Positions 5,290 through 61,547 of a DNA stretch of 64,000 nucleotides are shown here, in pieces (the first letter of the stretch is position 1; each line of letters starts with the position of its first letter). The notes under the pieces are model-generated. The model made no database searches, was not told the DNA's origin, and saw only the letters and a program-made list of their open reading frames with translations. The stretch is from Emiliania huxleyi CCMP1516 (lineage: Eukaryota). Location of the stretch: NCBI RefSeq assembly GCF_000372725.1, contig NW_005201102.1, positions 186,001-250,000 of the forward strand, written 5' to 3'. Both the position numbers and the translations under genes were made by a program.

Positions 5290-7347
5290 TCATACACTGC
5301 TCACCGTAACACTGCCCCCGTCGATCGAGGAGGACTTGCGGTGCTCGCGCAGCTGCTCCCGGTTATGTGGGAGAGAGAGATGCCAGGTGCGTCGCAGCTC
5401 GCCGAGGCTGCGACGGGTGCGTCTGTCGATCAACAGCGCGAGCCTGGGCGAGAATGGTGCGCGCGAGTGTCGAGACTCGCGCAAGAGGGTGTGTGTGCGC
5501 GGGGGTAGTGGTGGTGGGGTTTGGCCGATTGTTTGGGAGACGCCGAGGGGGGTGCGGTGGGACGCCGCGCACCGTCCTGCCTGCGCCGCGTGTCGCCTCC
5601 ACCGAGACCGCAACGTGAACACCTTCCATGCGTCCATGCACGAGCGCAGCCGCACCGCCGCGCCGGCGCGCAACCGGACGCAATGGCCGACTCCAGACGC
5701 GCCAGCGGCGGCCGCATCAGCGGAGGCCCCGACACCGCCGCCAGCCGCCGCGAGCCCGCCGTCGACAGCGCGTCGCAGCTGCTCATTCTCGTGGAGCAGC
5801 TCCGACAGCGCATCCCACTCCGCCACGCGAGCCTGACGCGAGGGCACGGACGCGTGTCAAGGGGGCAGCTGGTCAGCTGGTCGAGGTGGCCGCTGGTCAA
5901 GGGGGCCGCTGGTCAAGGGGGCCCTCCTCCCGATGCCTCCCTCCCGATTCCGACAGGGAGCGAGCGAGCCTGCAGGAAGGCTCGGCCTGCCATACCTCCA
6001 GAGTGGTCGAATCCAGTGTGGGTTTAGTCCCGTGGGTGGTGCGGTGGCCTGCGAGAAGGCTCGGCCGTCCACGAAGCCGTCGCCGCCGCGCCCCTCCCTC
6101 CCGTCTCGGACCGCTGTCTCGAGTTGCGGCTGCGTCAGTACCTCGACGCTCCCGTCCAGGTACCGCACATGGAAGCGGAGCGCCTGCAGGAAGGCTCCAG
6201 GAAGTGTCTAAGAGCTGTCTAGGAGGTGTCGAGGTACCGCACACGGAAGCAGGACGCCTCTGCCGCACCAGCGGCGACGCCGCCACCCTCGCCGCCGACA
6301 CCCAGCCCGCCGCCGCCGAGCCCGCCGCCGCCCTCGCCTCCGCCGCCGCCGCCGCTGCCTCCAAGAGGCAGCGACAACGTCACCCGGTCCACGACCCTCC
6401 CTCGCGACGCGCTTGCACTCTCTCCTTGAGCCCCGTCCGCCGGGCCGGCACAGAGAGGCCCGCCGCCCGCTCGAGGGCTGCGCGCATCGCGGCTGCTGCT
6501 GCGGCACACCTTTGTGGCGTCGGTCGGGCTGGCGGCTTCCGTCGGGCTGGGCGGCCCACCGCTCGATACGGACGGCCCCTCTTCTAGCCGCAAGGTGGCG
6601 GCGCGGCGCGACCGCTCGGCCTGCCTCTGCTCCCGGTGCGACTGCTCGAGCTGCCACTGGCGCTGCTGCAGGAGGGCGAGCCCCCGCCTACCATACCTCC
6701 ATAGTCTCGAATCCGGTGTGGGTTTAGTCCTGTGGGTGGTGCGGTAGCAGGGTGGCGAGCCCCCGCCTGAGGAGGCTGGAGGAGGCTAGGGTGGGTGGGT
6801 GGAAAGGGGCGGGGCCCGCCGCGAGCGGGCAACACCGCGGGCAGCCAGTGAGGCGGCGGCGGCGGCTTGGGGCTGGAGAGGAGTGCGCGCCGCTGCTGCT
6901 GCCGCCGCTGCCGTCGCTGAGCTTCGAGGTGCTCGACCCGCCTATCGAACCGTAGGGCGTGAGCACGAGAGCACGCCGTTCCTGCCTTCTGTGCGCGGGC
7001 GCCTCTGCGCTCGCAGCACCGCGGCGGTCGCCTCAAGCTGCCGCCGCCAGAGCTCGTGTCGCTGGCTGTCGACACTCGCACTCAAAGATTGCGCCGCCGC
7101 CGCCGGCGGCGGCGGCGGCGGCTGTGTGACCGGTTTAGGCGGTGCTGCCGCCCGACTGGCGGCGGCGGCGGCGCGCTCGGCAGCCGCCGCATCACGCCGC
7201 ACCGCCTCGCGCCGCACGGCAGAGCAGTGGTGCTCTCGGGCAGCAGAGTCTGACGACGCCGTCGAGAGTCCACGCCGCTCGAAGCACCTCGCCTCCGTCG
7301 AGGCAGCCCGAGTCCCTCGAAGCTCCCGATAGCGCTCCAACGCCATT
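5290..7347 (-). CDS. Hypothetical multi-exon low-complexity/coiled-coil protein; ends approximate
   Basis: ORF pieces join across predicted GC-AG introns 6688-6766, 6184-6257 and 5987-6065 (...SLLR/RGLALLQQRQWQLEQSHREQRQAER...; ...AAE/ALRFHVRYLDGSVEVL...; ...ARVAEWDALSELLHENEQLRRAV). No recognisable domain. Confidence 0.45.
5990..6044 (-). mobile_element. Introner-like ~55-nt element, family A, copy 1 (in predicted intron 5987-6065)
   Basis: + strand CCATACCTCCAGAGTGGTCGAATCCAGTGTGGGTTTAGTCCCGTGGGTGGTGCGG, flanked by a ~20-nt exon duplicate (gcctgcaggaaggctcggcc / gcctgcgagaaggctcggcc). Confidence 0.75.
6691..6744 (-). mobile_element. Introner-like element, family A, copy 2 (in predicted intron 6688-6766)
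   Basis: + strand CCATACCTCCATAGTCTCGAATCCGGTGTGGGTTTAGTCCTGTGGGTGGTGCGG, flanked by the duplicate ggcgagcccccgcct. Confidence 0.75.
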
Positions 7348-9001: not shown

Positions 9002-12000
9002 ATGATCCAGGCCGGCCAGCGGTACAAGCTCTCGGGCCTGGCCGCGGCGCACCTCAACGGCAAAACGTGCAAGATTCGGCGGTACGACGAGGAGAAGAAG
9101 CGGTGGATTGTGGACCTGGATGCGGATCTCGAGAAGAACAACGATGCGCCAAAGGCGCTCCGCGCGGAGAACCTCAAGCCCATCACCGAGCCTCCGCTCG
9201 GAGGCCCCTCCACCCCTCCGCCAGCCGCAGCGCAGCCATCCGTTGCTCCGTCGGCGGTGGCGGGAGGAGGGGGAGGCGCGGCGACGACGCCGACGCAGAC
9301 GGGCGCGGGGCTCTCAGCGAACGAGCCCACCGAGATCACGGGCGAAGAGTTCCGGCGTAGCGTCGCGGCGAAGGCCAGCATGGCGCCTCCGCTGACGCCG
9401 CCGTCGGCGGTTGTGGGCGCGGGCGGCGCGGCGGCGCGAGGCGGCGCGCCAGCCGCCAAGCGACGGGTGGTGCCGACAGTGGTGCCGACGGCCTCGGCCG
9501 CGGCCGCGGCATCGGTCCCAGCACCGCCGCCCGCCGCCTCTGCCGGTGGCGATGCTGCTCGCGTGGCGGGCTGCTCCAGGGTCGCTGCTGCTGCGAGGAG
9601 CCCCGCCTCCGTCTCCAACATGGACTTGGACGAGGAGGAGGAGGGGGAGGAGGAGGAGGAGGAGGAGGAGGGGGAGGAGGAGGAGGCTGCGAGCGAGGAC
9701 GGGGATGCGGCCGACGGCGCGCCTCCTCGGCGCGCCGCCGACGAAGCAGGGCGCGAGGTGCCGCTATGGGGAGATGTGGGGAGACGTGGGGAGATGTCGG
9801 GAGGGCGCGAGGTGCCTCGCTAGCCGCATCTCAGCTGCACTGCCAATCCCGCCGCCGCCTCCTCCTCCTCCGCCTCCGCCGCCGCCACCGCCGCCGCCAC
9901 CGCCGCCGCCGCCGCCGCCTCCACCGCCGACCCCACCCAGCCCGCCACCACCCTCCTCCCCGCCTCCCTCCCCGCCGCCACCCTTTCCGTCCGCACACCA
10001 CCGCCCCCGCCACCCCTCCTCCCCGTCCGCCCCTCCTCCCACTCCGCAGGCGCTGGTCCGGCGGCTTCTCGACGCGCAGAACCGGGAGCGCGAGCTCGCG
10101 GCCCTTCTCGAGGACGGCGCCGTCGGACGCGCCCTCGGCGACGATGACGGCACCGGACGCCTAGAGCCGGACGCCTAGAGCCGGACGCCTGGAGCCGGAC
10201 GCCTGGAGCCGGACGCCTGGAGCCGGACGCCTGGAACCGGGACGCCTAGACGCATGTCTTCCAACCCGCGCCCGAGAGGGCACGGACTCCGCTGCATCTC
10301 CCCACACCTCCGCTGCATCTCCCCATCTCCGCCACATCTCCGCTGCATCTCCCCGCATCTCCCCACATTTCCGCTGCATCTCCCCGCATCTCCCCGCATT
10401 TCCGCTGCATATCCCCGCATCTCCCGCATCTCCCGCATCTCCCAGCATAGGCTCCGGAGTCTCGGCCGAGAGGCTCAAGGCGGAGGAGCGGCTCCTCGCC
10501 GCCGCTGCAGACGAGGCCGCCGAGAAGGCGCGCGGCTCTACCGCCGAGCAGATGCTGCGCGACATGGAGGCGATGGCGTCCGGCGGGGGGGCGGCTGTCC
10601 CTCCGGCGGATAGCGGGCGGGGGGGCGGCGCGGCGTCGTCTGCGGCGGACGACGAGGAGTACTCGCCGGCGGTTGCGGCGGCGGCGGGCGAGGCGCTTGC
10701 TGCGGAGGTTGCCGGGTGGCGTGTGGAGTATGACGAGGCGCTCGAGCTGGTGGCCGAGCTGGAAGATGCGCTCGAGGCGAGAGGCGGCCGAGAGACAGCC
10801 GAGAGGCGGCCGAGAGACAGCCGAGGGACAGCCGAGGTGCGGCCGAGGGACAGCCGAGGGACAGCCCGTGTCCCCCCCCCCCCCCCCCTCCCGCCCAGGC
10901 GTCGGGCGTGTCGATCCTCGAGTTTGAGAGGGCGGCCGCCGCCGCAGACGCCGACGGCGGGTTCGGCGAGGGCGGCGCCTCGCAGGAGCCGCCCGCCGCA
11001 GACGCCACGCCGCGGTGCGAAAAGTGCCGCGCGCGACCGGCACTTTCCCTTGCGGCCGGCGGCGGAGGCGGCGGCGGCGGCGGCGGCGGCGGAGGCGGCG
11101 GCGGCGGCGGAGGAGGCGGCGCTGACAGGGCGCGGCCGCAGTCGCTTTGCTGGGTGTGCTCGGCGGACGCGGAGCTGGACGAGCGGCGTCCGCTCAAGTC
11201 GAAGCACGGGCAGAAGCAGGCGGCGGGCGCGTCTGGGTTCACCGGGTGGACCGCCGGCCTCCGCCGCACCGCCGACGCCAGGGCGCTCAAGCAGATGTAC
11301 AAGGTGGAGCGGCCGCAGCAAATCGGCAGGCTGGCGCCGCTGCTGGAGGACGAGGAGACGCTCGAGGTAGACGAGCTTGCGTCGGAGGGGGAGGGGGAGG
11401 AGGAAGAGGAGGGGGGGCGGCCCGCCAAGCTGCCGCGCCTCTTCTCCCACGCGCGTGCGCGCGCGCGCGCTGCGAGGGCGGCCGATGAGGAGTCCCTTTC
11501 GGGCGACTCGTCGTCCGAGGGCGAGGGCGGGCTCGGCGGAGGCGGAGGGCTTTCCGAGGCGAAGCTGGCGCGCGCGTGGCGGGAGGAGCTCAGGCACGAG
11601 GCGGAGGGTGGCCGCCGGCTGGCGCCGCGCGTGCGGAAGGGCGGCCACGACGCCAGGGCGGGCTCGCTGCTGCAAAAGTGCTCGGTCTGCCGCCACCCGT
11701 TCTTCGAGTGCGCGCAGGTGTACGCGCACCCGCAGCTCGGCGTCCCCCTCTGCCACTACTGCCACGAGGCGGTGGTGGAGGAGGAGGGCGGCGGAGGCGG
11801 CGGCGGCGGCGGCGACAGCGCGATGCCGGAGGCGCCGCCAGCCGCAGCAGGCGAGGGCGAGGAGGGCGCGGCAGAGGAGGAGAACGAGGAGGAGGAGGAG
11901 GTGGGGGAGGTGTGCGTGTGGTGCGCCGGGCTCAACCACACCGGTGGCGGCGAGGGCGGCGAGCCGGACGTCTTCCTCAACAACATGCTGCGAGCCGCGT

Positions 12001-15000
12001 CTCTTCACACCTCCTGCTGTGAACAGGCGAGCCGGACGTCTTCCTCTGCGACGCGGCCGGCTGCGGGCGGGCGGTGTGTGAGCGGTGCATCCGCTCCAAC
12101 TTGGGAGGCGAGGCGGCCGACGCAGTGCGCGAGGCGGAGCCGTGGCTGTGCTATGTTTGCGAGCCGGCGCCGCTCGCCCGTCTCGCCAAGCGATGCGCCG
12201 CGCTCGTCGCGCGGCGCAACAAGATCTCGCTCAAGCGCAGCCGCCGCGAGGCTCGCTGGCATGCGGCGGCCCCCGCCGGTCGCGGCGTGTCCGACCTCCC
12301 CTCCCGCGCCTTCACCTCCTCCCAAGACCTCGACGACGTCGACGACGCCGCCGCCGGGGGCGCCGCCCTGCCTGCGGGCGACGGCCGAACGGGCGGCGAC
12401 AGCCGAACGGGCGGCGGCGGCGGCGGCGCGCGCGCAAAGTCCGCCGCGGAGCTGGCACACGAGGCGCAGGAGGCGACGGCGGCGGCGATCGCCGCCGCCG
12501 CGGCGGAGGAGGAGGAGGAAGACGCGCGGGCGCGCGTCATCACGCTGTGGGCGGCTCGTGGCGAGGCCGGCGCGGTGACGGTGCTGCCGCGGCTGGCGCG
12601 GCAGCTCAAGCCGCACCAGGAGGAGGGCGTCCACTTCTTGTGGGGGGCGTGCTTCGGCTCCAAGCGGGCTGACAATGCGAAGCGGCGCGAGCACGGGTGC
12701 GTCCTCGCGCACTCGATGGGGCTCGGCGAGACGTTTGTTTGCCTCCTCCCCGCCCCGCCCCCCCCCCCCCCCTCTTCACACCTCTCCGCTGTGAACAGGC
12801 AAGACGCTCACCGTGATCTCCTTCCTCCACACCGCCCTCACGCGCGCTCGCACGGTCGAGGGGCGCTTCTACGCGCAGATGGGGCGCAACGCGGCGGTGG
12901 CCTAGTGCCCGCCGACGGCGGTCCTTTAGTGAGCAGCGTCTCTTCACACGTCTAGCCGTGAACAGGTGGCCGACGGACCGCCGACGGCGCTGGTGCTCGT
13001 GCCCAAGAGCGTCGCCACGCAGTGGGAGAGCGAGTTCGGCAAGTGGCTGCTCGACCAGTGCGGCAACCAGGCCGCGAGCAACCCGAGGAACCTCCGCTGG
13101 CAAAAGTTCCCCGACGCGGGCGCGCTCAAGCGGTCTCACTCGGGAGACGGGCGCGGCGGCGGGCTCGAGCAGCAGCGGCTGCAGGCGCTGCGCCGCTGGC
13201 GGAGGGAGGGCGGCGTGATGGTGATGGTGCACGACACGTACCGCTCCGTCCTCTCTTCCGCAAAGAACGACGGCGCGGAGCGGCAGGCGCGGGCGGCCGC
13301 CCAGACGGCCGCTGCCGCCGGCAGCGCCTCCGAAGCGTATGGCGGCACGAACGGTGAGGCCGTGGCGGCCTTCAACGCGGCGGTGGCGGCGGCGCAGGCC
13401 GCGCGCGCCGCAGCGGACGCAGCGGGGCAGGAGAGGGAGCGAGAGCTGGCGGAGTACCGGCGGCTGCTGCAGGACCCCGGTCCGGACGTCCTCGTGATCG
13501 ACGAGGCGCACGTGATCAAGAATGAGAAGAACCAGCTGCGCGCGGTCCTCGCCGGCGTGCGCACGATGCGGCGCGTGTTGCTGACGGGGACGCCGCTCCA
13601 AAACAACTTGCGCGAGTACTTCCACATGGTGGACTACGCGTCGCCAGGTTCCCTCCTCTCCTCTTCTCTTCTCTTCTCTTCTCTTCTCACATGGTGGACT
13701 ACGCGTCGCCAGGCGAGCTCGGCGACCTCGACACCTTCAAGAGGCTGTACGAGAGCACCATCACCGACGGCCAGTTCCGGTACGGCGAGGACGACGACGA
13801 GTCGCGCTCGCAAAGGGCAAAGACGCGGCGCGAGGTGTGTCCGAGCCACTTCCGGCACACTTCCGGCACACCTGCCGGACACTCCCTAGGCAAAGAAGCG
13901 GCGCAAGGACATGTCCAAGCGTATCTGGGCCCTCACGCGCAAGCTCGACAAGCTGGTGCAGCGGCGGGGCGTCGAGGTGCTGCAGCGCGACCTGCCGCGC
14001 TCGCAGCAGTACGTGATGGTCCTGCGGCCGACGCCGACGCAGCGCGCGCTCTACAACGCCAAGGTCGAGTCGATGGCCGGGCGGCAGCAGCTCTTCGAGT
14101 TCATGACCGACATGCTCCGCATCTACAACCACCCCGCGGCCCTCCTCGACCCAAAGACGCTCGCCCCGAACGCCAAGCTCGTCGCGAAGGCCGCCGCCGC
14201 CGCCAGCATCGACGCCGCCGCCGCCGCCGCCGCCGCCGGGGCCGCCGCCGGGGGCGCGCCGTCCCCGCACTTCCCGCCGGCCGCGCCGGCCGGCGGCGCG
14301 GGGGTGGGGGTGACGTGGCTCGAGCGGGCGTGGCCCGCCTCGCGGCGCGGCAACCCTGCGGCTGCCTTTGGCCCGGAGGTGTCGTCGAAGGTCGCGGTGG
14401 CGCTGGCGCTGCTGCAGCAGGCGGCGCGCGCGGGCGAGCGCATCTTGCTCTTCTCGCAGTCGCTCGAGTCCCTCGACGCGCTGCAAGTGGCGCTCCGCTA
14501 CGCGCCCTCGCCCCGCCGCGCGCGCGCGGCCAAGGCTTTCTCGCCGGGCGGCCCGCCGCCGCCGCCCTCGCCGGGCGACGGCGGCGAGGGCGGCGTGGGG
14601 TGGCAGCCGGGCCTCGACTACCTGCGCCTCGACGGCAAGACGTCGGGGGACGAGCGCGACGGGATGGTCAGGCTGTGAACGGCGTCTCTTCACACCTCAC
14701 GCTGTGAGCAGGTCGGGGGACGAGCGCGACCAGATGGTCAAGCAGTTCAACGCGCGCGACTCTGCGATCCGGCTCTTCCTCATCTCGACCAAGGCGGGCG
14801 GCCTCGGCCTCAACCTCGCCTCTGCCTCGCGCGTGATCCTCTTCGACGCCTCTTGGAACCCGTCGTCGGACGTGCAGGCCGTCTTCCGCGACACTTCCTA
14901 GGCACTCCCTAGACACTTCCTAGACGCCTCTTGGAACCCGTCGTCGGACGTGCAGGCCGTCTTCCGCGCCTACCGCTACGGCCAGCGGCGGACGGTCTAC

Positions 15001-16434
15001 GTGTACCGCCTCATCGCGCAGGGCTTCGAGGAGTGCCTGTACCGGCAGCAGGTGGTCGAGCTGCAGCTCGCAGGACAGACACGCCGACGGCACGTCGCTG
15101 ACACGTCCCTCACGCGTGTGTCCCCCTCCCCCCCTCCCCCCCCACGTCCCGTAGGTGGTCAAGCTGCAGCTCGCCGGCCACATCATCGACGACACGCACG
15201 CGGAGGCGATGTACACCGAGGAGGAGCTCAAGGCGTACTACGCGCCGCTCCCCGCCGTCGACGCGGTTGCCGGCGCGTCCGACGCCTCGCGCCCCGGTGC
15301 CTCCCCCCCCCCCCNNNNNNNNNNNNNNNNNNNNNNNNNNNNNNNNNNNNNNNNNNNNNNNNNNNNNNNNNNNNNNNNNNNNNNNNNNNNNNNNNNNNNN
15401 NNNNNNNNNNNNNNAGAAGGCCCCGGGAGAAACAAAGATAGGGGACGGGCATGAACAATGGTAAATGCAATGGGGCAAAGAGGCTGCTGGAACTATAGTC
15501 GAACAAGACAATTCAGGTTTTGAAAAGAGGTTTCATGTAAAGAAACCTTATGTGCCATCTCTGCCAGCCCGCCTCTCCCTCCTCCCACCCCCTTCCGACC
15601 CGACCGCCTGCCTCACGCCGCGCCGTGCCGCCAGGCGCCGACCTCGCGACCGAGTCGTGGCTGCCCGCGCTCGCGCAGAGCGGCCAGGTCGGCCCGCTCC
15701 TCGCGTCCGTCGAAGACCACGACGCGCTGCGGCTCGGCGAGGCAGAGGAGCTGCTCACCGTCCGCGAGATGGAGGACGCCGCCAACGAGCTGCTCGAGGC
15801 GAGCCTCGACCAGCCGCGCGACCTCTACTTCTCGGACCTTTCCTAGACCTTTCCTGGAAGCTTCCTGCAGGCGAGCCTCGACCAGCCGCGCGACCTCACC
15901 TTTTGCGACAAGTGCAACGCGCAGCTGCACAAGCTCTCGTACAAGCAGTTTGGCTACCGCTGCGGCCAGTGCGGCCACGACGGCCTCGTGCCGCCGGCGC
16001 CGCCCGTGGTGACGCGCAACGACCCGACCACCAAACTGGCCGTCGAGCCGCGTTCGATCACCTGGAAGCTGCACGGCGAGTCGGGCGACAAGAGCGCGAT
16101 CAATACCACCGTGCTCGCCACGGGCGGCGCCTACCACGTGCAGTGGCGCGTCGCGCCCGTCGACGAGGAGGGCAATGCGCTGCAGCTCGGCGAGAACGAG
16201 GGGTGGACCGACGCCAAGAAGCCCATCAGCGGCGGGCGGCTGATCGCCAAGAAGCAGATCGACCACACGGTCGCCTACCAGGCCCGCGTGCGCGCGCGCA
16301 TGAGCGCCTGCTCGTGCTCGCTCTCGAGCACCCCGCTCGCGTTCGTCACCGAGTGCCGGTGCCCTTGGACGCCGTGGTCGCCTCCGTCCGTCAAGGCGAC
16401 GCCAACCGCGCCCGACGAGGAGCCGGCGGCGTGA
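9002..16434 (+). CDS. ATRX-like SNF2 chromatin remodeller: N-terminal SH3/KOW-like module, ADD zinc finger, SNF2 ATPase and HELICc, C-terminal Zn-ribbon and FN3-like domain; about 13 introns; spans an assembly gap
   Basis: ADD: CSVC...HPQLGVPLCHYC...CVWC...VFLCD...CGRAVCERCIRSNLG...WLCYVC. Helicase motifs after splicing: LKPHQEEGV, LAHSMGLG/KTL, VIDEAHVIKN, LLTGTPLQNNLREYF, LLFSQSL, YLRLDGKT, FLISTKAGGLGLNL, FDASWNPSSDVQAVFRAYRYGQ. Predicted introns: 9758-10049, 10150-10450, 10777-10898, 11959-12026, 12726-12798, 12897-12965, 13648-13712, 13817-13889, 14642-14711, 14878-14955, 15052-15154, ~15297-15634, 15799-15870. Confidence 0.9.
15315..15414. other. Assembly gap (100 N)
   Basis: Run of n characters after a poly-C tract. 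Confidence 1.
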
Positions 16435-33170: not shown

Positions 33171-35823
33171 TCACAACTTCGATGGCACCGCCGGCTGCCG
33201 CGACAGCTCGGCGAGGCACAGCTCGGCGATCTTCACGTCCTGGATCGCGACGCCCGTCGAGTCGAAGACCACGAGCTCGGGGCGACTGGGCTTCGAGCCG
33301 CGCCCCCACCCTCCCTCCGCGATGCACTCGCCGAGCTCCCTCGCCTCTTCCGGGTCGAAGCCCGCTGCGACGGCGTGCTGGAGCTCGCCCTTGTCGACGC
33401 ACTGCGCCCGCGAGTCGACGACGACCAGGTCGGCCTCGATCAGCGCGCCCGCCTCGAGCTCTTGCTTGCCGGCCGAGTCCGCGCCGATCGCGAGTACGAC
33501 CACTGGCCGGCGCAGCCACGCCGTCCGGACGATGGCCGACCTCGCTGGCGTGACGGTGAGGACGATGCCCGCACCGCGGCACGCAGCCTCCGCCGACGGC
33601 GCTACCTCGGCCGCCCACCCCGCCGGCCCGCCGTCGAGCTCCGCCGCCAAGGCGCGCGCCTGCTCGGGTCGCCGCGACCACAGACGAACGGCGCGGCAAG
33701 GCGTGACCGCGGCGAGCATCCCCAGCTGGTACCGCGCCTGCACGCCGCATCCGATGACGGCGATGTGGTGCGGCTCCGCCGGCGCGAAGAGCGACGCGGC
33801 GAGCGCCCCGGCGGCGGCGGTGCGGAGCTCGGTCAACAGGCCGCCGTCGAGCAGCACGGCGAGCGGCGCGAAGGTGCGCTGCGAGAAGACGAGCACGAGG
33901 CCCGAGTTGTTGCCGCCGCCGCCGCTCGCCACCTTGGCGACGAAGACCTCGCCCCCCTCCTCGTAGGCCGACTTGATGCACGCCTGCCCGTCGCCCTTGC
34001 TGTCGCCCGAGAACCGTCCCAGCGGGGGCTGGCCCAGCGTCTGGATCGGAGGCACCGACACGCGGCCCTGCGAGTAGCTAGTGAAACCCGCGGCCAGCGC
34101 GTCGAGGATTGCACGCGGCGCAACCCGCCCCATCGCCGCCGCAACCTCTCTCTCCGAGTAGACCCGAGGAGGCGGCGACACAGCCGCCGCCACCGCCGCC
34201 GCCGCCTCCGCCTCCACCGCCTCCCCCGCCGCCTCCGCCTCCACCGCCCGCTTGACCTCGCTCGCCCACGCCTCGAGCTTGAGCTGTCGGCTCGCCGCCT
34301 TCGGGTCGCGGAGCCGGCGGAACTTCTTCGGCTTGCGCTCGAGCGCCGCGACGCGCGGGTCGTTGCACACGGCTGCGGGTAGGCCGGCCGCCGCCACGGC
34401 CTCCTCAAACTTGGCGGGGTGCGCGGTCAGCACGCAGACGACCCGCCCGCCCTCGCACGCGGCGCGGACGGACTCGACGTGGTCGAGCGCGTGCACGCCT
34501 AGTCCCATACCTCCAGAGTACCGAATCCAGAGTGTAGGCTCAGTCCGGGGGGTGGTGCGGAGCGCGTGCACGCCGATGGCGGAGTGCGGGTCCAGCGCGT
34601 ACCCGTCGGCTGCCCAAACCTCGCGCATCGTCTGCAGCGTCTGCGCGTCGCTCACGGCGCAGGAGACGAAGGTGTCCTGGACGGCGTGCAGCAGCGGCGG
34701 AGGCAGCGCGACGGCTCGGTCCGCCTCGAGCGTCGCCATGAGTGCGGCGACCGCCGTCGCGTCTCCGCCCGAGCAGAAGTAGAGGAGCCGCTCGACGTTG
34801 TACGCGAACTGGATGTCCATCGCCGGAGAGACAGTCTGCTGGTTTGCGCGCATCGACATGTCGCCCCTCGAGATGGTCCGATGCACGACATCGTTGGAAT
34901 TCGTCGCGCAGACGATCCTGCCGACCGCGCCGCCGAGCCGCTTGGCGAGCAGCCCGCCCGCGGCGTTGCCAAAGGCGCCGGTCGGGACGACAAAGTGGAC
35001 GGGCCGGTCGGAAGCGGGCGAGACCTGTTGGCACGCCCACAGGTAGTAGCCCGCCTGCACGAGCACGCGCGCCCAGTTGATCGAGTTGATCGAGCAGACG
35101 GAGTGGCGCCGCATGAAGGCCGCGTCTTCGAAGACGCGCTTGAGCGCCTCGGCCTGCTCGTCGGTGTCGCCCTCCGTGCGGTAGACGAAGACGTTCGGGC
35201 TGTCCACGGTCACCATCTGCAGCTCCTGCACGCGCGACACGCGCCCCTCCGGATACAGGCAGAAGATGCGCACCTGATCTCGGGTGATCTCGGGTGATCT
35301 CGGGTGATCTAGGGTGGCACCGCGGGTACAGGCAGAAGGAGCGCACCGCCTCGCAGCCTCGCACCGCCTCGATGGCGGCGGGGCCCGTGTCTCCGGACGT
35401 CTCGACCACGATGGTGGCGCGCTCGCCGCGCCCGCCGAGCACGTGGTTGAGCAGCCGCGCCACGACCTGCTGCCCGATGTCCTTGAAGGCGAGCGTCGGC
35501 CCGGCGCCCGTCTCGAGGAGCAGCCGCCGGCCCGCCCGCACCAGAGGCAGAGCTGGCTCGAGCCCGTTGTTGAACGAGAGGAAGGCGGCCGCGCAGATCT
35601 CCTCGCAGTCGGCGAGCGCGATGCCGGTGAAGGGCTCGAGCACGCGTGCCGTCACCTGCGCAAGCGTCATGCCCGGGTGTAGCCCGGCGATGTGGTTTGG
35701 CATCGTCGACAGTTCGGGCACGAAGAGGCCGCCGTCCGGCGCATAGGCGGAGAGCAAGATGTCGGAGAAGTCGAGGCCGTGCACGCCTCCGCGCGTGGAC
35801 TGATAGCGGACCCGTGACGGCAT
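33171..35823 (-). CDS. Fusion of a threonine-synthase-like (THNSL2-type) PLP enzyme and an ornithine cyclodeaminase/mu-crystallin domain, with C-terminal PTS1 (SKL); introns 35274-35346 and probably 34499-34573
   Basis: TS motifs: RYQSTRG, APDGGLFVPE, GPTLAFKD (PLP Lys), TSGDTGPAA, NSINWARV, VPTGAFGN, SPAMDIQ...NVERLL, DPHSA, TAHPAKF. OCD motifs in the same frame: LTELRTAAAGALA, IGCGVQAR, AIGADSAGKQEL, FDSTGVAIQD. Ends PSKL-stop. Confidence 0.9.
34505..34560 (-). mobile_element. Introner-like element, family A, copy 3 (75-nt in-frame predicted intron 34499-34573)
   Basis: + strand CCATACCTCCAGAGTACCGAATCCAGAGTGTAGGCTCAGTCCGGGGGGTGGTGCGG, between two copies of gagcgcgtgcacgcc (GVHAL is duplicated in the ORF). 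Confidence 0.8.
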
Positions 35824-53171: not shown

Positions 53172-54750
53172 ATGGCCGATGCTCCTAGTATGAGAGGTCA
53201 TCTGGCTACCGCGAGCGCGACCCAACTCGTTGACGTCGTCCGATGGTTGTGCCTCAAAGTCAGCCTTCGGAGGCTATCGTGGGGTCGAGCCGGCGGCGGC
53301 TGTTACATGTGGTTCCACCACCCCTCGTAGGCTTTGCCTCTGACCGCCACCGTTCCCAGGCTGCCTAATGGGATGGAAAGGAAGGCTCGGCGAGCGTCTA
53401 GAAGCGTTCGAAGGCCCCCGCACGGGGGGTCCCGGCCGACGTCATGCGCGTCCGCCAAGGGTCCGGGGTCGCCCAGGCAAGTCGTCTTGGCAAGTGGCCC
53501 AAATCCGATGAGTTTTCCAGGTGTGAACAGCTGTTGAGAGGTGTGAATTCATCCCGGGCGGGGTGCGGGGCGGTAGTCCCGCAGAGAAAATTTTGCGTGC
53601 TGGGGCACTGAGATCGCAGTTTTATTAGTCCACGGCGGATGCCAGCTGCAGCTGCGAGGAGACACGCAGTGCCTCATTTGAGCATGAATCAGCGTCCTTT
53701 CTGCTGGCATCACGCATAGGAGAAGCCGAGAGGCACGAGGTCCTCCAATTTGCCGTACCGACGTCGCGCCTAGAGAAGATCACGGCCGCTGCCAAGCAGG
53801 CCAAGCTCGATCTCGACCGCGACCGCGCCTCTGCCGCCCTCCCCCCTGCGCCCGCCGCAGCTGGCCTTGCGTCCGGCGTCGCTGCCACCGGCCCCGCCGG
53901 CCTTGCGCCCGGCGCCGCTGCCACCGGCACCGGCACCGGCCCCGCCGCTTCTGACACCGCCGCGTCCGCCGCGCCCGCCGCCGACCCGCCGACGGAGTCG
54001 CCGCTCACAATTGCAACACCAATGCTCGAGATCAGCACGAACGTTGTGATCGCCACGTACGACAGCGCGGGTAGGTTCGACTGGTGGTGCGGCCGCGTGC
54101 AGCAGATGCTCTGCAAGTCGGGCGGCAAGAGGGGGAGCTACGTGCGGACCTATCTCCCCGTGCCGTTCGACGAGGCTAAGGCAGCCAACTATAAGATCCA
54201 CTGCAACTTCTACGCCAAGTCGGGCGCGGACGGCGACTACACCTTCAAGTACAACGTCGACGATTCCGCCCCGTACCACATGGAGTCGGTGCTCGGCCTC
54301 CTCGACCTCAACCTCCCCACCGACGAAGGAGTCTACGTGCCGCGCGATCAACAGGCCGGCTGGAAGTTTGACGAGGCGCTTAAACTGATCACGCCGGCCG
54401 CGGACTCTGCTCCCCACCGCAAGCGGAGTACCGCCGACGACGAGGCTGGCGGCTCCTCTGGCGCGAAGAAGCGCGCCCTAACGCTGACGCTCACACGCAA
54501 GGGCGGGACGCTTGGAATCTCTGTCGACCCCAACAACCACCAAATCACCAACGTGGTCGAGGGTGGCGCTGGCGACACCGCCGGGCTTTGCGTGGGCGAC
54601 TTCATCGCCGAGGTCAACGGCAAGTCGACGACCGGCGGCTCCTTTGGCAAGCTGCTGCCTGCTGCAGCGACGGCGGAGATTAGGCTGCGGCTCATCCGAG
54701 TGCAGGTGGTTGAGCCCGACCATCTACACCTCCCTGACCTACTAGCATAA
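53172..54750 (+). CDS. Hypothetical protein with a C-terminal PDZ domain; predicted intron 53259-53628
   Basis: LTLTRKGGTLGISVD...ITNVVEGGAGDTAGLCVGDFIAEVNG is a PDZ signature. The frame is open back to TTTTATTAG at 53628, and a 29-codon exon from ATG 53172 joins in phase. Confidence 0.7.
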
Positions 54751-55290: not shown

Positions 55291-56208
55291 ATGCTGTCGA
55301 CCGCCCTGCTGCACCTCTGCCCGCTCGCGGCCGCCGTGCCGTCACCGACACCGTGTGAGTGCGGTCGCTCGGATGCCAAAGCTTCCACGTGCTCCGTCGA
55401 GCAGTTCCTCGACGCGACGTACTTTTGGGACTCCGTCGACCCAATCCCTGTCGACCCAAACTGCGCCAAGGACCCATACTCGGCGATGGGGTCTGAGATT
55501 ATTCAGGGCTTCAAAGCTTCCGACGACGGCAACTACAGCATCATTCAGGGCCCGTCCCCCTTTCCGCCGGGCACCTGCGGTTCGCGCTCCTCTTCAGATC
55601 CGCGTGTGTTCGGGCCGCACTTCTGGAAGACGTTCCACACAATGGCTGTGAACTATCACTCACCACCGACCAAGGCTGCACTCGGAGCTTGCTCCGCCTT
55701 CATCAAGGCCCTGCCTTACATGATCCCCTGCACTCACTGTGCCTGGGACCTAGGACAGTTCATCCAAACGAACATTGAAAACAGCGGCAAATACAACGAG
55801 ACCTGCATGGGAGCTACCTCGGAGCATTTTGATGAGTCCTTGTGCTTTGCACCCGAAGAGGCCTGCAAGTCGCAACGCTCGCTCGTCAGCTTCTTTGTTC
55901 GCGCGCACAACAACGTTAACAGCCACACGAACCCGTGCCGACCGCGCTTTACCATCAAGCAGGGCTATGACATGTACAAGAACTCCTCGCCAGACTTCTG
56001 CGCGCGTGACATCGTTTGGGGCTCGAAACAGATTTGTGGTGGCGGGTACTGCGCCCCGCGGGGACCGTGTGAAGAGATGGTTGGGCCGGTAGGAACCGGG
56101 ACAGGAAGCGGGCCTTCGGAAAACGACTACTTCGGAACCGACGAGACAGAGGGTTGCACCCTCGACACTGCTCTTTCCTGCGGCAGCGTGGCCTGCAAGG
56201 CGGCGTGA
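55291..56208 (+). CDS. Erv1/ALR-family FAD-dependent sulfhydryl oxidase, secreted-type, Cys-rich, intronless
   Basis: DPRVFGPHFWKTFHTMAVNY...P, LPYMIPCTHC (CxxC), FFVRAHNNVN; signal-like MLSTALLHLCPLAAA. Confidence 0.88.
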   Translation: MLSTALLHLCPLAAAVPSPTPCECGRSDAKASTCSVEQFLDATYFWDSVDPIPVDPNCAKDPYSAMGSEIIQGFKASDDGNYSIIQGPSPFPPGTCGSRSSSDPRVFGPHFWKTFHTMAVNYHSPPTKAALGACSAFIKALPYMIPCTHCAWDLGQFIQTNIENSGKYNETCMGATSEHFDESLCFAPEEACKSQRSLVSFFVRAHNNVNSHTNPCRPRFTIKQGYDMYKNSSPDFCARDIVWGSKQICGGGYCAPRGPCEEMVGPVGTGTGSGPSENDYFGTDETEGCTLDTALSCGSVACKAA

Positions 56209-60014: not shown

Positions 60015-61547
60015 TGCTGCTGTTACTGCTGCTGCTCGCCTGCACGTGCCGCTTGCGCGCGCGCTGGTTCGAGAGGCCGCCCGTGGTCTCCTGGATCCGC
60101 TCCACGCCAAGCCGCAGCTTCTCCTCCATCTGAGCCTAGGAGACAGGACCTCGCCCGCCTCGGAAGGAGGAGACGCCGCGGTGTCGCCGCTCGCCCCTCC
60201 GTCGTCTGTGCCATCGAGTTGGAGGTGGAGGAGCCGCGCAGGCCGCACAGCCAGGAGCAGGTGATCTGCTGGTTGTGCACCCACGCGAACGGGATCCCCA
60301 TGTTGTACAGCGTCTGGGCAACCTCGAGGTTGACGCGGCGCGCGAGGCAGCAGAAGACGACGCGGTGCTCGGGAAACAGCTCCGGCAGCGCCGGCGCGAG
60401 CGACGTCTTCCCCGTGTCGGGGGGCGATCGGAGGAGGACGAGCTGAGGCCCGGGCCGCGCGACCGCCTTGAAGAGCTGCACTTGGGAGGGGTACGGCTGC
60501 AGGAACTTGGACGCGTGCCGAGCCTTGAACTGGGACGAGGAGAGCAGCGCCGGGTGCTTGCGCAGGCACCTAGTACCATACCCCCACAGTATCGAATCCA
60601 GCGTGGGTTCAGTCCCGCCGGTGGTGCGGCAGGCACTTGTGCACTGTGAACTTGACCTTGACCTTGAGCGAGGCGAGGACGTGGCGCGCGTCGGCGAGGA
60701 TCTGCAGCGGCGGCAGCTCCTCGACCCCGTACCGCATCTTGTACTGCGTCTCGAAGATGACCACCGCGTCCGCCAGGTTGCGCACCGTCTTGTAGCGCGC
60801 CTCCTCCGAGTCCTTGTCGCCGTCGCTCTTCTTCTTGGCGAGCTGGCCGGCGGCGGTGCCCATCTCCTTGGCGAGCTGGAGCTCCCACGGCGCGTCGAGC
60901 ACCAGGTTCTTGCCCGGCTCGAGCGCCTCGAGCCAGCCCACCGCCCGGTCCCCAACCTGCACCTTTTTGAGCGTGTTGGACTTTGCCGCCTCGCCGTTCA
61001 TGATCCGCATCACGTTGTCAATCTTGATCTGCGTCTTGGTGTTGACGCCGCCGCCGCCGCCGCCCTTGCCGCCGCCGCCGCCCTTTTTGCCGCCGCCCTT
61101 GCCGCCGCCGCCCTTCTTGCCCTTCTTGCCCTCAGCGGCCGCCTCCTCTGGCAGGTCGAGCGGCAGCGCGGCCAGCTTCGGCCGGATGTGCGTCTTGTAG
61201 CACCAGGAGGCAAAGTCGTCCATCTCGGCGAGCATGTCGCCGAGGAACTTGCCGTTCGAGTCGTCCAGCTGCATCTCGCCCTTGGTGCGGATCTGCGAGC
61301 ACGCGCGCCGCAGCATCTCGGCGACCGTCTTCTTCTGGTACGAGAGCGCCGCCTCGATGTTCTTCCACTCCATCTTGTTGACCGAGTCCATGAGCAGGTC
61401 CGACGCGCCGAACCCCTCCGGCTCGGCCTCCGGGTCCGCGGCCGGCGCCGGGGGAGCGCTGCTGGAGGCGGCGGCGGACATTGTCGGCTGGTCGTCGCGC
61501 GAATGAGACGACGCGGGCTGAGACTGAAAAGAGAATTTGCTCGTCAT
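56636..61547 (-). CDS. Multi-intron superfamily 2 (Ski2-like) helicase; start at 61547 or 61481
   Basis: Motifs in order: LQPYPSQ (Q), SPPDTGKT (I), VVFCCLARRVN (Ia), IIDEPT (II), WMSATLP (III), TKDFTYGANVPCTSV (V), LRQFVGRVARTG (VI). Terminal exons join through introns 56921-57247, 56803-56866 and 56693-56762 to TAG at 56636-56638. Confidence 0.8.
59922..60035. repeat. (CTG/CAG)n microsatellite inside a predicted helicase intron
   Basis: About 37 near-perfect ctg units. Confidence 0.95.
60576..60629 (-). mobile_element. Introner-like element, family A, copy 4 (in predicted intron 60570-60636)
   Basis: + strand CCATACCCCCACAGTATCGAATCCAGCGTGGGTTCAGTCCCGCCGGTGGTGCGG flanked by the duplicate gcaggcac. 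Removal restores FTVHK/CLRKHPALL. Confidence 0.8.

Follow-up and report, generated by a model that had tools for sequence, protein, structure and literature searches.

Four introns of an ATRX-like gene, found in a 64,000-nucleotide stretch of the Emiliania huxleyi CCMP1516 genome (hereafter the window), belong to a genome-wide intron family. Our best explanation, to which we give about an even chance, is that these introns were made by the repair of staggered breaks, with a filler copied from the 3′-terminal part of an intron already present, often one close by. The origin of new spliceosomal introns is still an open question and few young examples are available. In E. huxleyi the scars of many introns are still nearly perfect, with a copied exon segment, a filler that can be traced and lengths confined to a narrow range. 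If true, the break-repair build would show the bulk making of new introns, and the same route would explain the odd donors of E. huxleyi.

The modelled part of the host gene (10899-15314, forward strand) encodes an ATRX-like SNF2 remodeller with an ADD finger, SNF2 and Helicase_C, as judged from Pfam, homologues and alignment; the gene probably runs on at both sides of the model, over roughly 9003-16434. Removal of the four family introns and five others leaves 3817 nt without a stop. In the comparison with ATRX orthologues that a sequence-only reading of the window had proposed, this spliced model aligns, without insertion at the sites.

All four introns lie on the forward strand, with the bounds given in the sequence-only reading and lengths of 68, 73, 69 and 70 nt. 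Each begins with 8-29 nt copied from the start of the exon that follows, a component that the reading had missed. Intron 1 (11959-12026, GC-AG, phase 1) consists of an exact 20-nt copy (11959-11978) of exon 12027-12046 and, at 11987-12026, a 40-nt unit matching the consensus of our data at 36/40 positions. Intron 2 (12726-12798, GC-AG, phase 1) has a short exon copy (12726-12733, 7/8; 10/11 in the X1 allele), a C-rich middle not common to other strains (12734-12771) and a 3′ remnant of the unit (12772-12798). Intron 3 (12897-12965, GT-AG, phase 0, with in-frame stops) combines an exon copy (12897-12920, 20/24) with the unit (12926-12965, 33/40), whose first arm is intact in all five of the other DNA-like runs covering that arm. 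In intron 4 (14642-14711, GT-AG, phase 2) the exon copy occupies 14642-14670 (27/29) and the unit 14672-14711 (36/40). In all four, the AG acceptor is supplied by the last letters of the filler.

RNA contigs support the removal of these introns. Record 12 of X11 joins 14641 to 14712 exactly (intron 4), the length of record 11 is exactly that expected after removal of introns 2 and 3, and the 58 letters of the same record that remain unmatched upstream of 12026 are consistent with the removal of intron 1. The four introns have the G[T/C] donor and AG acceptor of U2-type spliceosomal introns. The branch point is predicted, from a TCAC that 28-31 of 31 diverged copies retain, to be the A 20 nt before the intron end.

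The shared 3′ end that first drew attention to these introns is real; it was incompletely described, at 26 nt instead of a unit of about 40 nt. Its motif matches exactly four times in the window (12001-12026, 12772-12798, 12940-12965, 14686-14711, all on the forward strand) and nowhere else in it, a looser pattern also finding these four only; 100 shuffles gave a mean of 0.00 matches and a largest count of 0. It is almost certainly not the consensus shared by 3′ splice sites throughout this genome. It does end in CAG and contains a branch-point-like TTCAC, but it is missing from the window's other exon-copy introns, and the resemblance extends over 40 nt with near-fixed letters. Nor is it private to the ATRX-like gene: a metagenome scan found at least 124 other sites, in at least 111 loci. 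Summed contig depth at 14696 is several hundred times that of the flanking exons, which is not a copy number; both copy number and clustering were judged from metagenome loci and contig depth. The unit has 55% GC and is built as arm, inverted arm, arm. Its ends are 11-nt direct repeats, without terminal inverted repeats, and are rather sharp (the unit measures 39-42 nt at 60/109 sites). Rfam gave no match to the unit in five loci (one hit lay elsewhere, E=0.84), and the motif was absent from the viral contigs searched.

A copy of the next exon is found at 75/130 distinct sites of the family (null 1.2%), and 58 of these 75 introns measure 65-72 nt, within an overall range of 59-78 nt. The duplication is variable in length, typically 20-33 nt, and 8-36 nt outside tandem arrays. 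The donor (GC, GT or GA) comes from the exon copy and the AG from the unit; among the 130 sites 63 donors are GC, 49 GT and 11 GA. For curated E. huxleyi genes the GC/GT/GA proportions are 56/40/4% (PMC4028052). Family introns are not similar from end to end: only the last 40 nt or so are common and the 5′ part is site-specific, an exception being L040 and L080, where unrelated genes have a whole 67-nt intron in common.

This build is not tied to one filler: it recurs with many that are unrelated, on either side, at 149 candidate sites in 220 kb of loci, against 0 in one shuffled set, and at some 20 separate places in the window. We conclude from this that a single process serves many fillers. 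Duplications crossing the junction are found on both sides (30/105). Several further introns of the host gene, all on the forward strand, have this build. Intron 13648-13712 is the mirror form, a pyrimidine filler followed by 25 nt copied from the end of the exon upstream; 13817-13889 has a 19-nt exon copy and a different, minisatellite-like filler; 14878-14955 is a 46-nt duplication across the splice site with a 32-nt filler; and 15052-15154 has a 20-nt exon copy and a different filler. RNA joints in X11 and X13 skip 78 nt at the third of these and 103 nt at the fourth. A probable intron at 15799-15870, predicted from sequence alone, has a 27-nt exon copy and again a different filler.

In the break-repair explanation, two nicks about 25-32 nt apart would be filled in, duplicating the exon segment between them, and a putative template-switching polymerase would insert the filler. 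Selection would retain products that start with G[C/T/A] and are about 60-78 nt long, and the arm, inverted arm, arm pattern would be a fold-back scar, not a working RNA hairpin. Break repair is reported to produce tandem duplications whose inserts, in either orientation, originate no more than 200 bp away (PMC7407515), and introns from staggered breaks are reported in Daphnia (PMC4202315). We count in favour of this route these precedents, the exon copies, the frame shared across fillers, the lack of detectable conservation of E. huxleyi intron positions with other eukaryotes (PMC3174169), and several traces of local copying. At L035 one filler reproduces 44 nt of the following intron exactly, in reverse complement (the best at other loci is 28 nt); inverted use of the unit is seen also at L055 and L117; three copies at L068 have one rare spacer in common; and 14/141 fillers match DNA no more than 600 nt away over at least 20 nt (null 2.8%). 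We count against it that the sharp unit ends look element-like, that whole introns copied in tandem account for most of the longest matches to nearby DNA, and that neighbours are no more alike overall or in the ATRX-like gene. The unit's AG is followed by G[C/T/A] in 123/130 copies, and 38/49 unit flanks read as sense coding DNA; these too count against break repair, since blind repair would also leave intergenic copies.

The main rival explanation is a tiny non-autonomous mobile element (an introner) of about 40 nt, spread by a putative integrase or by the target-primed reverse transcription of 3′ intron ends, with an unusually long target duplication and local hops. We regard it as rather unlikely. 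The defined 5′ and 3′ ends of the unit, the number of sites, the mostly sense orientation and the 67-nt intron shared by unrelated genes are all as expected of an element, and an acceptor on the element with a donor from the duplication is a described introner design (Gozashti et al. 2022, PMC9860276, type of Fig. 2B; sections cited). Introners of that type resemble our family in having many similar copies at intron sites, an element-borne 3′ splice site, a donor from duplicated host sequence and an unchanged mRNA; many similar copies at intron sites and precise removal from mRNA are what we find. However, their target site duplications are given there as 3-9 bp, compared with about 20-33 nt of variable length in our family, and neither a 3-9 bp duplication nor terminal inverted repeats, the marks of DNA-transposon-type introners, were found, the unit ends being direct repeats. 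What family members share is limited to the 3′-most 40 nt, unrelated fillers (AT-rich, minisatellite) occupy the same frame, and partial and inverted copies of neighbours exist. The supplement of the same paper has 653 introners in five families for CCMP1516. Three of these families have a mean length of 37 nt and 54-57% GC, and the entry for target site duplication is "?" for four and N for one. Judged by length and GC only, the ~40-nt family may already be among them.

The sequence-only reading proposed local propagation, in which the 3′ end of a neighbouring intron is the template for new ones, and a possible stem immediately before the AG. A strict version of it, with one ancestor in the ATRX-like gene copied to its neighbours and a stem that functions as RNA structure, is very improbable. 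All four window copies do fall in a span of 2753 nt (P=3e-4 under a uniform distribution), and family copies cluster within genes elsewhere too, with 14 strict neighbour pairs and, at distances of up to 600 nt from a copy, a density of 39-44 copies per 100 kb. But the family is genome-wide, which largely refutes the local-only part; the four copies are not each other's closest and have four different spacers, and their likeness is that of random pairs (P=0.90). The use of a neighbouring intron as template fares better, being seen directly at L035 and suggested at L055 and L068, although neighbours overall are not significantly alike (all 57 pairs, P=0.14; within 600 nt, a post-hoc subset, P=0.015). 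As for the stem, the inverted repeat is present and, taken in isolation, the 26-27-mers from introns 1 and 2 give z of about -2.2, but the pairing is weak, at -3.4 to -5.2 kcal/mol. Intact introns have no folding advantage over shuffled ones (z +0.55, -0.86, +1.35 and +0.91), 21/140 copies have an A-C mismatch in place of one stem pair (three of them compensated), and we see no covariation, which is under-sampled by a strict search pattern that fixes some stem letters. We have therefore rejected a functional hairpin. Two other ideas were not supported: a long satellite of 29-nt period as source (in-register extension past 40 nt in only 5/109, compared with 0-5 at other shifts), and a reading of CCTGTG-starting copies as antisense introns (1/5 vs 10/44).

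A further possibility, which we consider quite unlikely, is that the intron positions are older, that mRNA- or cDNA-templated repair overwrote their 5′ halves with exon sequence, and that gene conversion between introns spread the 3′ halves that they share. The existence of both mirror forms and the near-constant intron length agree with this, as do the strain data: wherever a DNA-like run covers one of the four introns, the intron is there, and the alleles of introns 2 and 3 differ between strains. Overwriting needs two processes, however, and leaves the junction-spanning duplications on both sides unexplained. Two orthologues, P0002 and P0003, have full-length gene calls on their metagenome contigs (weak evidence), and intron positions of E. 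huxleyi have no detectable conservation with other eukaryotes (PMC3174169, sections cited), which also argues against it. No intron-less allele appears among the joints listed (six DNA-like runs), a point counted against break repair, and the orthologous pairs L040/L062 and L003/L030 have no intron-sized difference at family sites; recent gain is therefore only inferred.

Several known systems resemble break repair as we envisage it (compared here with the sections of the papers cited). The staggered-break introns of Daphnia pulex (Li et al. 2014, PMC4202315) have a repeat of the adjacent exon at the far intron end and an insert between, as do our 75/130 sites. Their repeats are 4-12 bp (33 cases), several times shorter than ours, and the sources of their inserts are mostly unknown, whereas the fillers in E. 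huxleyi form families and one was traced to a neighbouring intron. In tandem genomic duplication (Hellsten 2011, via bioRxiv 051292; a potato case is given in PMC4974935) the duplicated exon supplies the splice sites. This fits intron 14878-14955 but not the family, whose acceptor comes from foreign filler, so that the two splice sites do not both derive from the duplication. Local propagation in Oikopleura, of unknown mechanism (Denoeud 2010, via bioRxiv 051292), likewise gives similar short introns near each other. A catalogue of E. huxleyi introner families exists; the long exon copy, and exon-copy introns of this species generally, we did not find described in the non-subscription literature searched.

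A wider version of the break-repair reading is tempting, and we hold it only tentatively, as somewhat improbable. Most E. huxleyi introns might come from one repair-like process, in which about 28 nt of exon is duplicated and the gap is filled from existing introns, often a neighbour. Introns would then seed introns in a chain reaction without a transposon, and the GC and GA donors would be nothing more than letters of the exon that the duplication happened to include. The introns of this species are reportedly rich in repeats. A length of about 28 nt resembles that of excision-repair tracts, Okazaki flaps or CRISPR repeats, a likeness that we do not use as support. Since exon copies blur the junctions, they may also be part of the reason for poor gene models in E. 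huxleyi.

The sequence-only reading had placed a shared 3' motif at the ends of four introns of the ATRX-like SNF2 gene and nowhere else in the window. This is what we find: exactly four occurrences, at the ends of introns 1 to 4 (11959-12026, 12726-12798, 12897-12965 and 14642-14711), versus 0.00 expected from shuffles. One further site in the window, 56067-56076 on the minus strand, has the left arm but no right arm. A palindrome at 53520-53550, both arms of which resemble those of the shared unit described below, lies outside the family B pattern. ADD, SNF2 and Helicase_C domains were identified in the host gene. The top long homologue is an ATRX of Prymnesium parvum, and one of the gene's exons matches E. 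huxleyi CCMP1516 EMIHUDRAFT_125542 with 100% identity across 54% of the exon's length, which points to E. (Gephyrocapsa) huxleyi or a very close relative as the organism. A nine-exon model (10899-15314) gives 3817 nt without a stop and, aligned with orthologues, has no insertion at the four intron sites. Among RNA contigs (X11), record 12 contains the exact junction 14641-14712. In record 11, the segments matching 12026-12724 and 12965-13630 are separated by exactly the length of the 98-nt exon 12799-12896, meaning that introns 2 and 3 were removed, and the record's 58 unmatched upstream letters are consistent with removal of intron 1. Splicing is thus demonstrated directly for intron 4 and by length for introns 1-3, in a single RNA run. 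Another intron of the gene contains a 100-N assembly gap followed by AT-richer sequence unlike its flanks (15315-15465), and the gene's probable longer introns (9758-10050, 10150-10451, 10770-10898) are filled with 10-11-nt minisatellites whose units have very high contig depth genome-wide.

Each of the four introns begins with a duplicate of the first letters of the next exon (the exon copy), matching at 20/20, 7/8, 20/24 and 27/29 letters in introns 1 to 4, respectively. The shared 3' unit (approximately 40 nt; a typical copy is metagenome locus L002:1373-1412) runs from an 11-nt arm through a degenerate inverted arm and a variable 5-nt spacer to a second copy of the arm, with AG at the end. 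In DNA-like runs of other strains, the first arm of intron 3 is intact in all five that cover it (X1, X3, X2, X4, X6), the exon copy of intron 2 is longer in X1, and contigs of X2, X4, X5 and X6 diverge from the window after 12733, in intron 2. The window alleles look eroded, or the C-run of intron 2 looks like an assembly quirk.

Family B is real, spliced and genome-wide. At 14696, contig depths sum to 19754, 25007, 193012 and 26060, compared with exon depths of about 45-57, 50, 260-420 and 50 in the same order; summed depth is not a copy number, and we read it only as "hundreds." A metagenome scan gave at least 149 matches in at least 124 stretches, representing at least 121 loci; removal of nine orthologous duplicates and one chance match left at least 124 sites in at least 111 loci. 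Among the matches listed, 130 distinct sites, the window's included, had sufficient flank for an exon-copy test: 75 score at least 8 (null 1.2%) and 47 at least 20, and many of the other 55 show a gapped or decayed copy by eye. Introns in this set measure 59-78 nt (65-72 nt in 58 of the 75 with an exon copy), and the two letters after AG are GC at 63 sites, GT at 49, GA at 11 and others at 7; the shares among curated E. huxleyi donors are 56% GC, 40% GT and 4% GA (excerpts of PMC4028052).

The sequence-only reading had proposed local propagation, with a neighbouring intron's 3' end as template. Copies do cluster: the matches listed contain 14 strict neighbour pairs, versus 1.1 or 5.7 expected at assumed densities of 1000 or 5000 sites per 100 Mb, and 48 pairs under a looser pattern (43 same-strand), with 39-44 copies per 100 kb at less than 600 nt versus 13-22 at 0.6-5 kb. 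Part of this clustering probably reflects greater intron density within genes, and the spread over so many other loci argues against a purely local origin. A neighbour does sometimes serve as template. At L035, the filler of one intron reproduces 44 nt of the intron that follows as an exact reverse complement, neighbour-specific letters included. L055 has a filler of inverted repeats with its neighbour's spacer variant (18 nt; two other loci match equally), L117 uses the entire unit in reverse, and three copies in L068 have a common spacer seen 3 times in the 130 sites. Among the matches listed, 14 of 141 fillers match DNA within 600 nt over at least 20 nt (null 2.8%), the longest mostly being whole introns copied in tandem; against this, 57 neighbour pairs are not more similar than random (P = 0.14), nor are the six pairs of window copies (P = 0.90), and the 32 pairs within 600 nt, a subset picked post hoc, give P = 0.015. 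A near-identical 67-nt intron occurs in two unrelated genes (L040:655-720 and the L080:301-367 region); given the similarity of its 5' part to the L080 exon, L080 is the probable source, assembly chimerism being possible. Tandem unit pairs surround a foreign 25-30-nt piece at L029:3562-3655, L055, L067:744-839 and L037, matching an exon of another locus at L055 and L037; these are true captures or assembly chimeras.

The suggested stem before the AG is weak: isolated intron ends give folding energies of -3.4 to -5.2 kcal/mol, the four whole introns are no more stable than shuffled sequences, and among the matches listed 21 of 140 copies have A-C at one stem pair, with compensation in 3. The inverted arm more likely acts as a branch-point region and preserves a trace of fold-back copying. 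At L015:735-813, an inverted unit is joined to a forward unit as a fold-back filler.

The reading that fits best, which we hold to be evenly balanced between right and wrong, is two-nick repair with filler from an existing intron end, viable products being kept. Nicks approximately 25-32 nt apart, once filled in, would duplicate an exon segment; the filler would be copied from the end of an existing intron; and survival would require a usable donor at the start of the exon copy and a total length sufficient for splicing. Repair products of this kind have been reported from rice and from synthesis-dependent end joining (parts of PMC7407515), as well as for Daphnia introns, with 4-12-bp repeats (parts of PMC4202315). 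The sharp ends of the unit, whose length is 39-42 nt at 60 of 109 sites among the matches listed, and the scarcity of copies outside introns speak instead for a tiny element, which we consider rather unlikely. That old introns were overwritten is more doubtful still; we retain it because the joints listed from six DNA-like runs show no intron-less allele. That E. huxleyi intron positions are without detectable conservation (passages of PMC3174169) weakens it. Family B works like introners, yet tests for short duplication, inverted ends and whole length came out negative for it. Five introner families of E. huxleyi are given in the available part of Gozashti 2022 (PMC9860276), their duplications unresolved or absent; the mean length of three of them is 37 nt, so that family B may be one of the five. 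The main text of a 2025 follow-up, in the portion available, does not name E. huxleyi (PMC12130899), and the word "intron" is absent from PMC13508280. We found no description of a long exon copy in the literature compared, which includes parts of bioRxiv 051292, PMC3488318, PMC4736243, PMC5583752 and PMC8469720; these repeats may already appear in Read et al. 2013 or the supplement to it.

The combination of exon copy and filler extends beyond family B: approximately 20 distinct places in the window show it (mostly 62-79 nt), five further introns of the ATRX-like gene among them. Loci among the matches listed give 149 candidates in 220,451 nt, whereas a single shuffled set gives none; family B accounts for 44. 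Of the remaining 105, some of which are family B taken from the opposite strand in error, 66 measure 65-74 nt. The fillers range from AT-rich text and 10-11-nt minisatellites to a second family (approximately 55-60 nt, 77-91% alike, both strands), found in exon-copy introns at 5970-6065, 6688-6766, 34499-34573 and 60570-60629 in the window and in L023, L040 and L062. Very AT-rich fillers of approximately 35-40 nt occur in the exon-copy frame in L059, L035, L090, L077 and L008 (several), in a genome of 67% GC. One ORF in the window (33174-35216, minus strand) joins a PALP/threonine-synthase-like part to an ornithine cyclodeaminase/mu-crystallin domain, possibly a fusion or two genes read through. 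Tandem arrays of the exon-copy and unit block, with a period of 65-77 nt, occur in L005, L020, L023, L087, L097, L100 and L118; some are deep in contig depth, hence their likeness to constant repeats with approximately 28-nt spacers.
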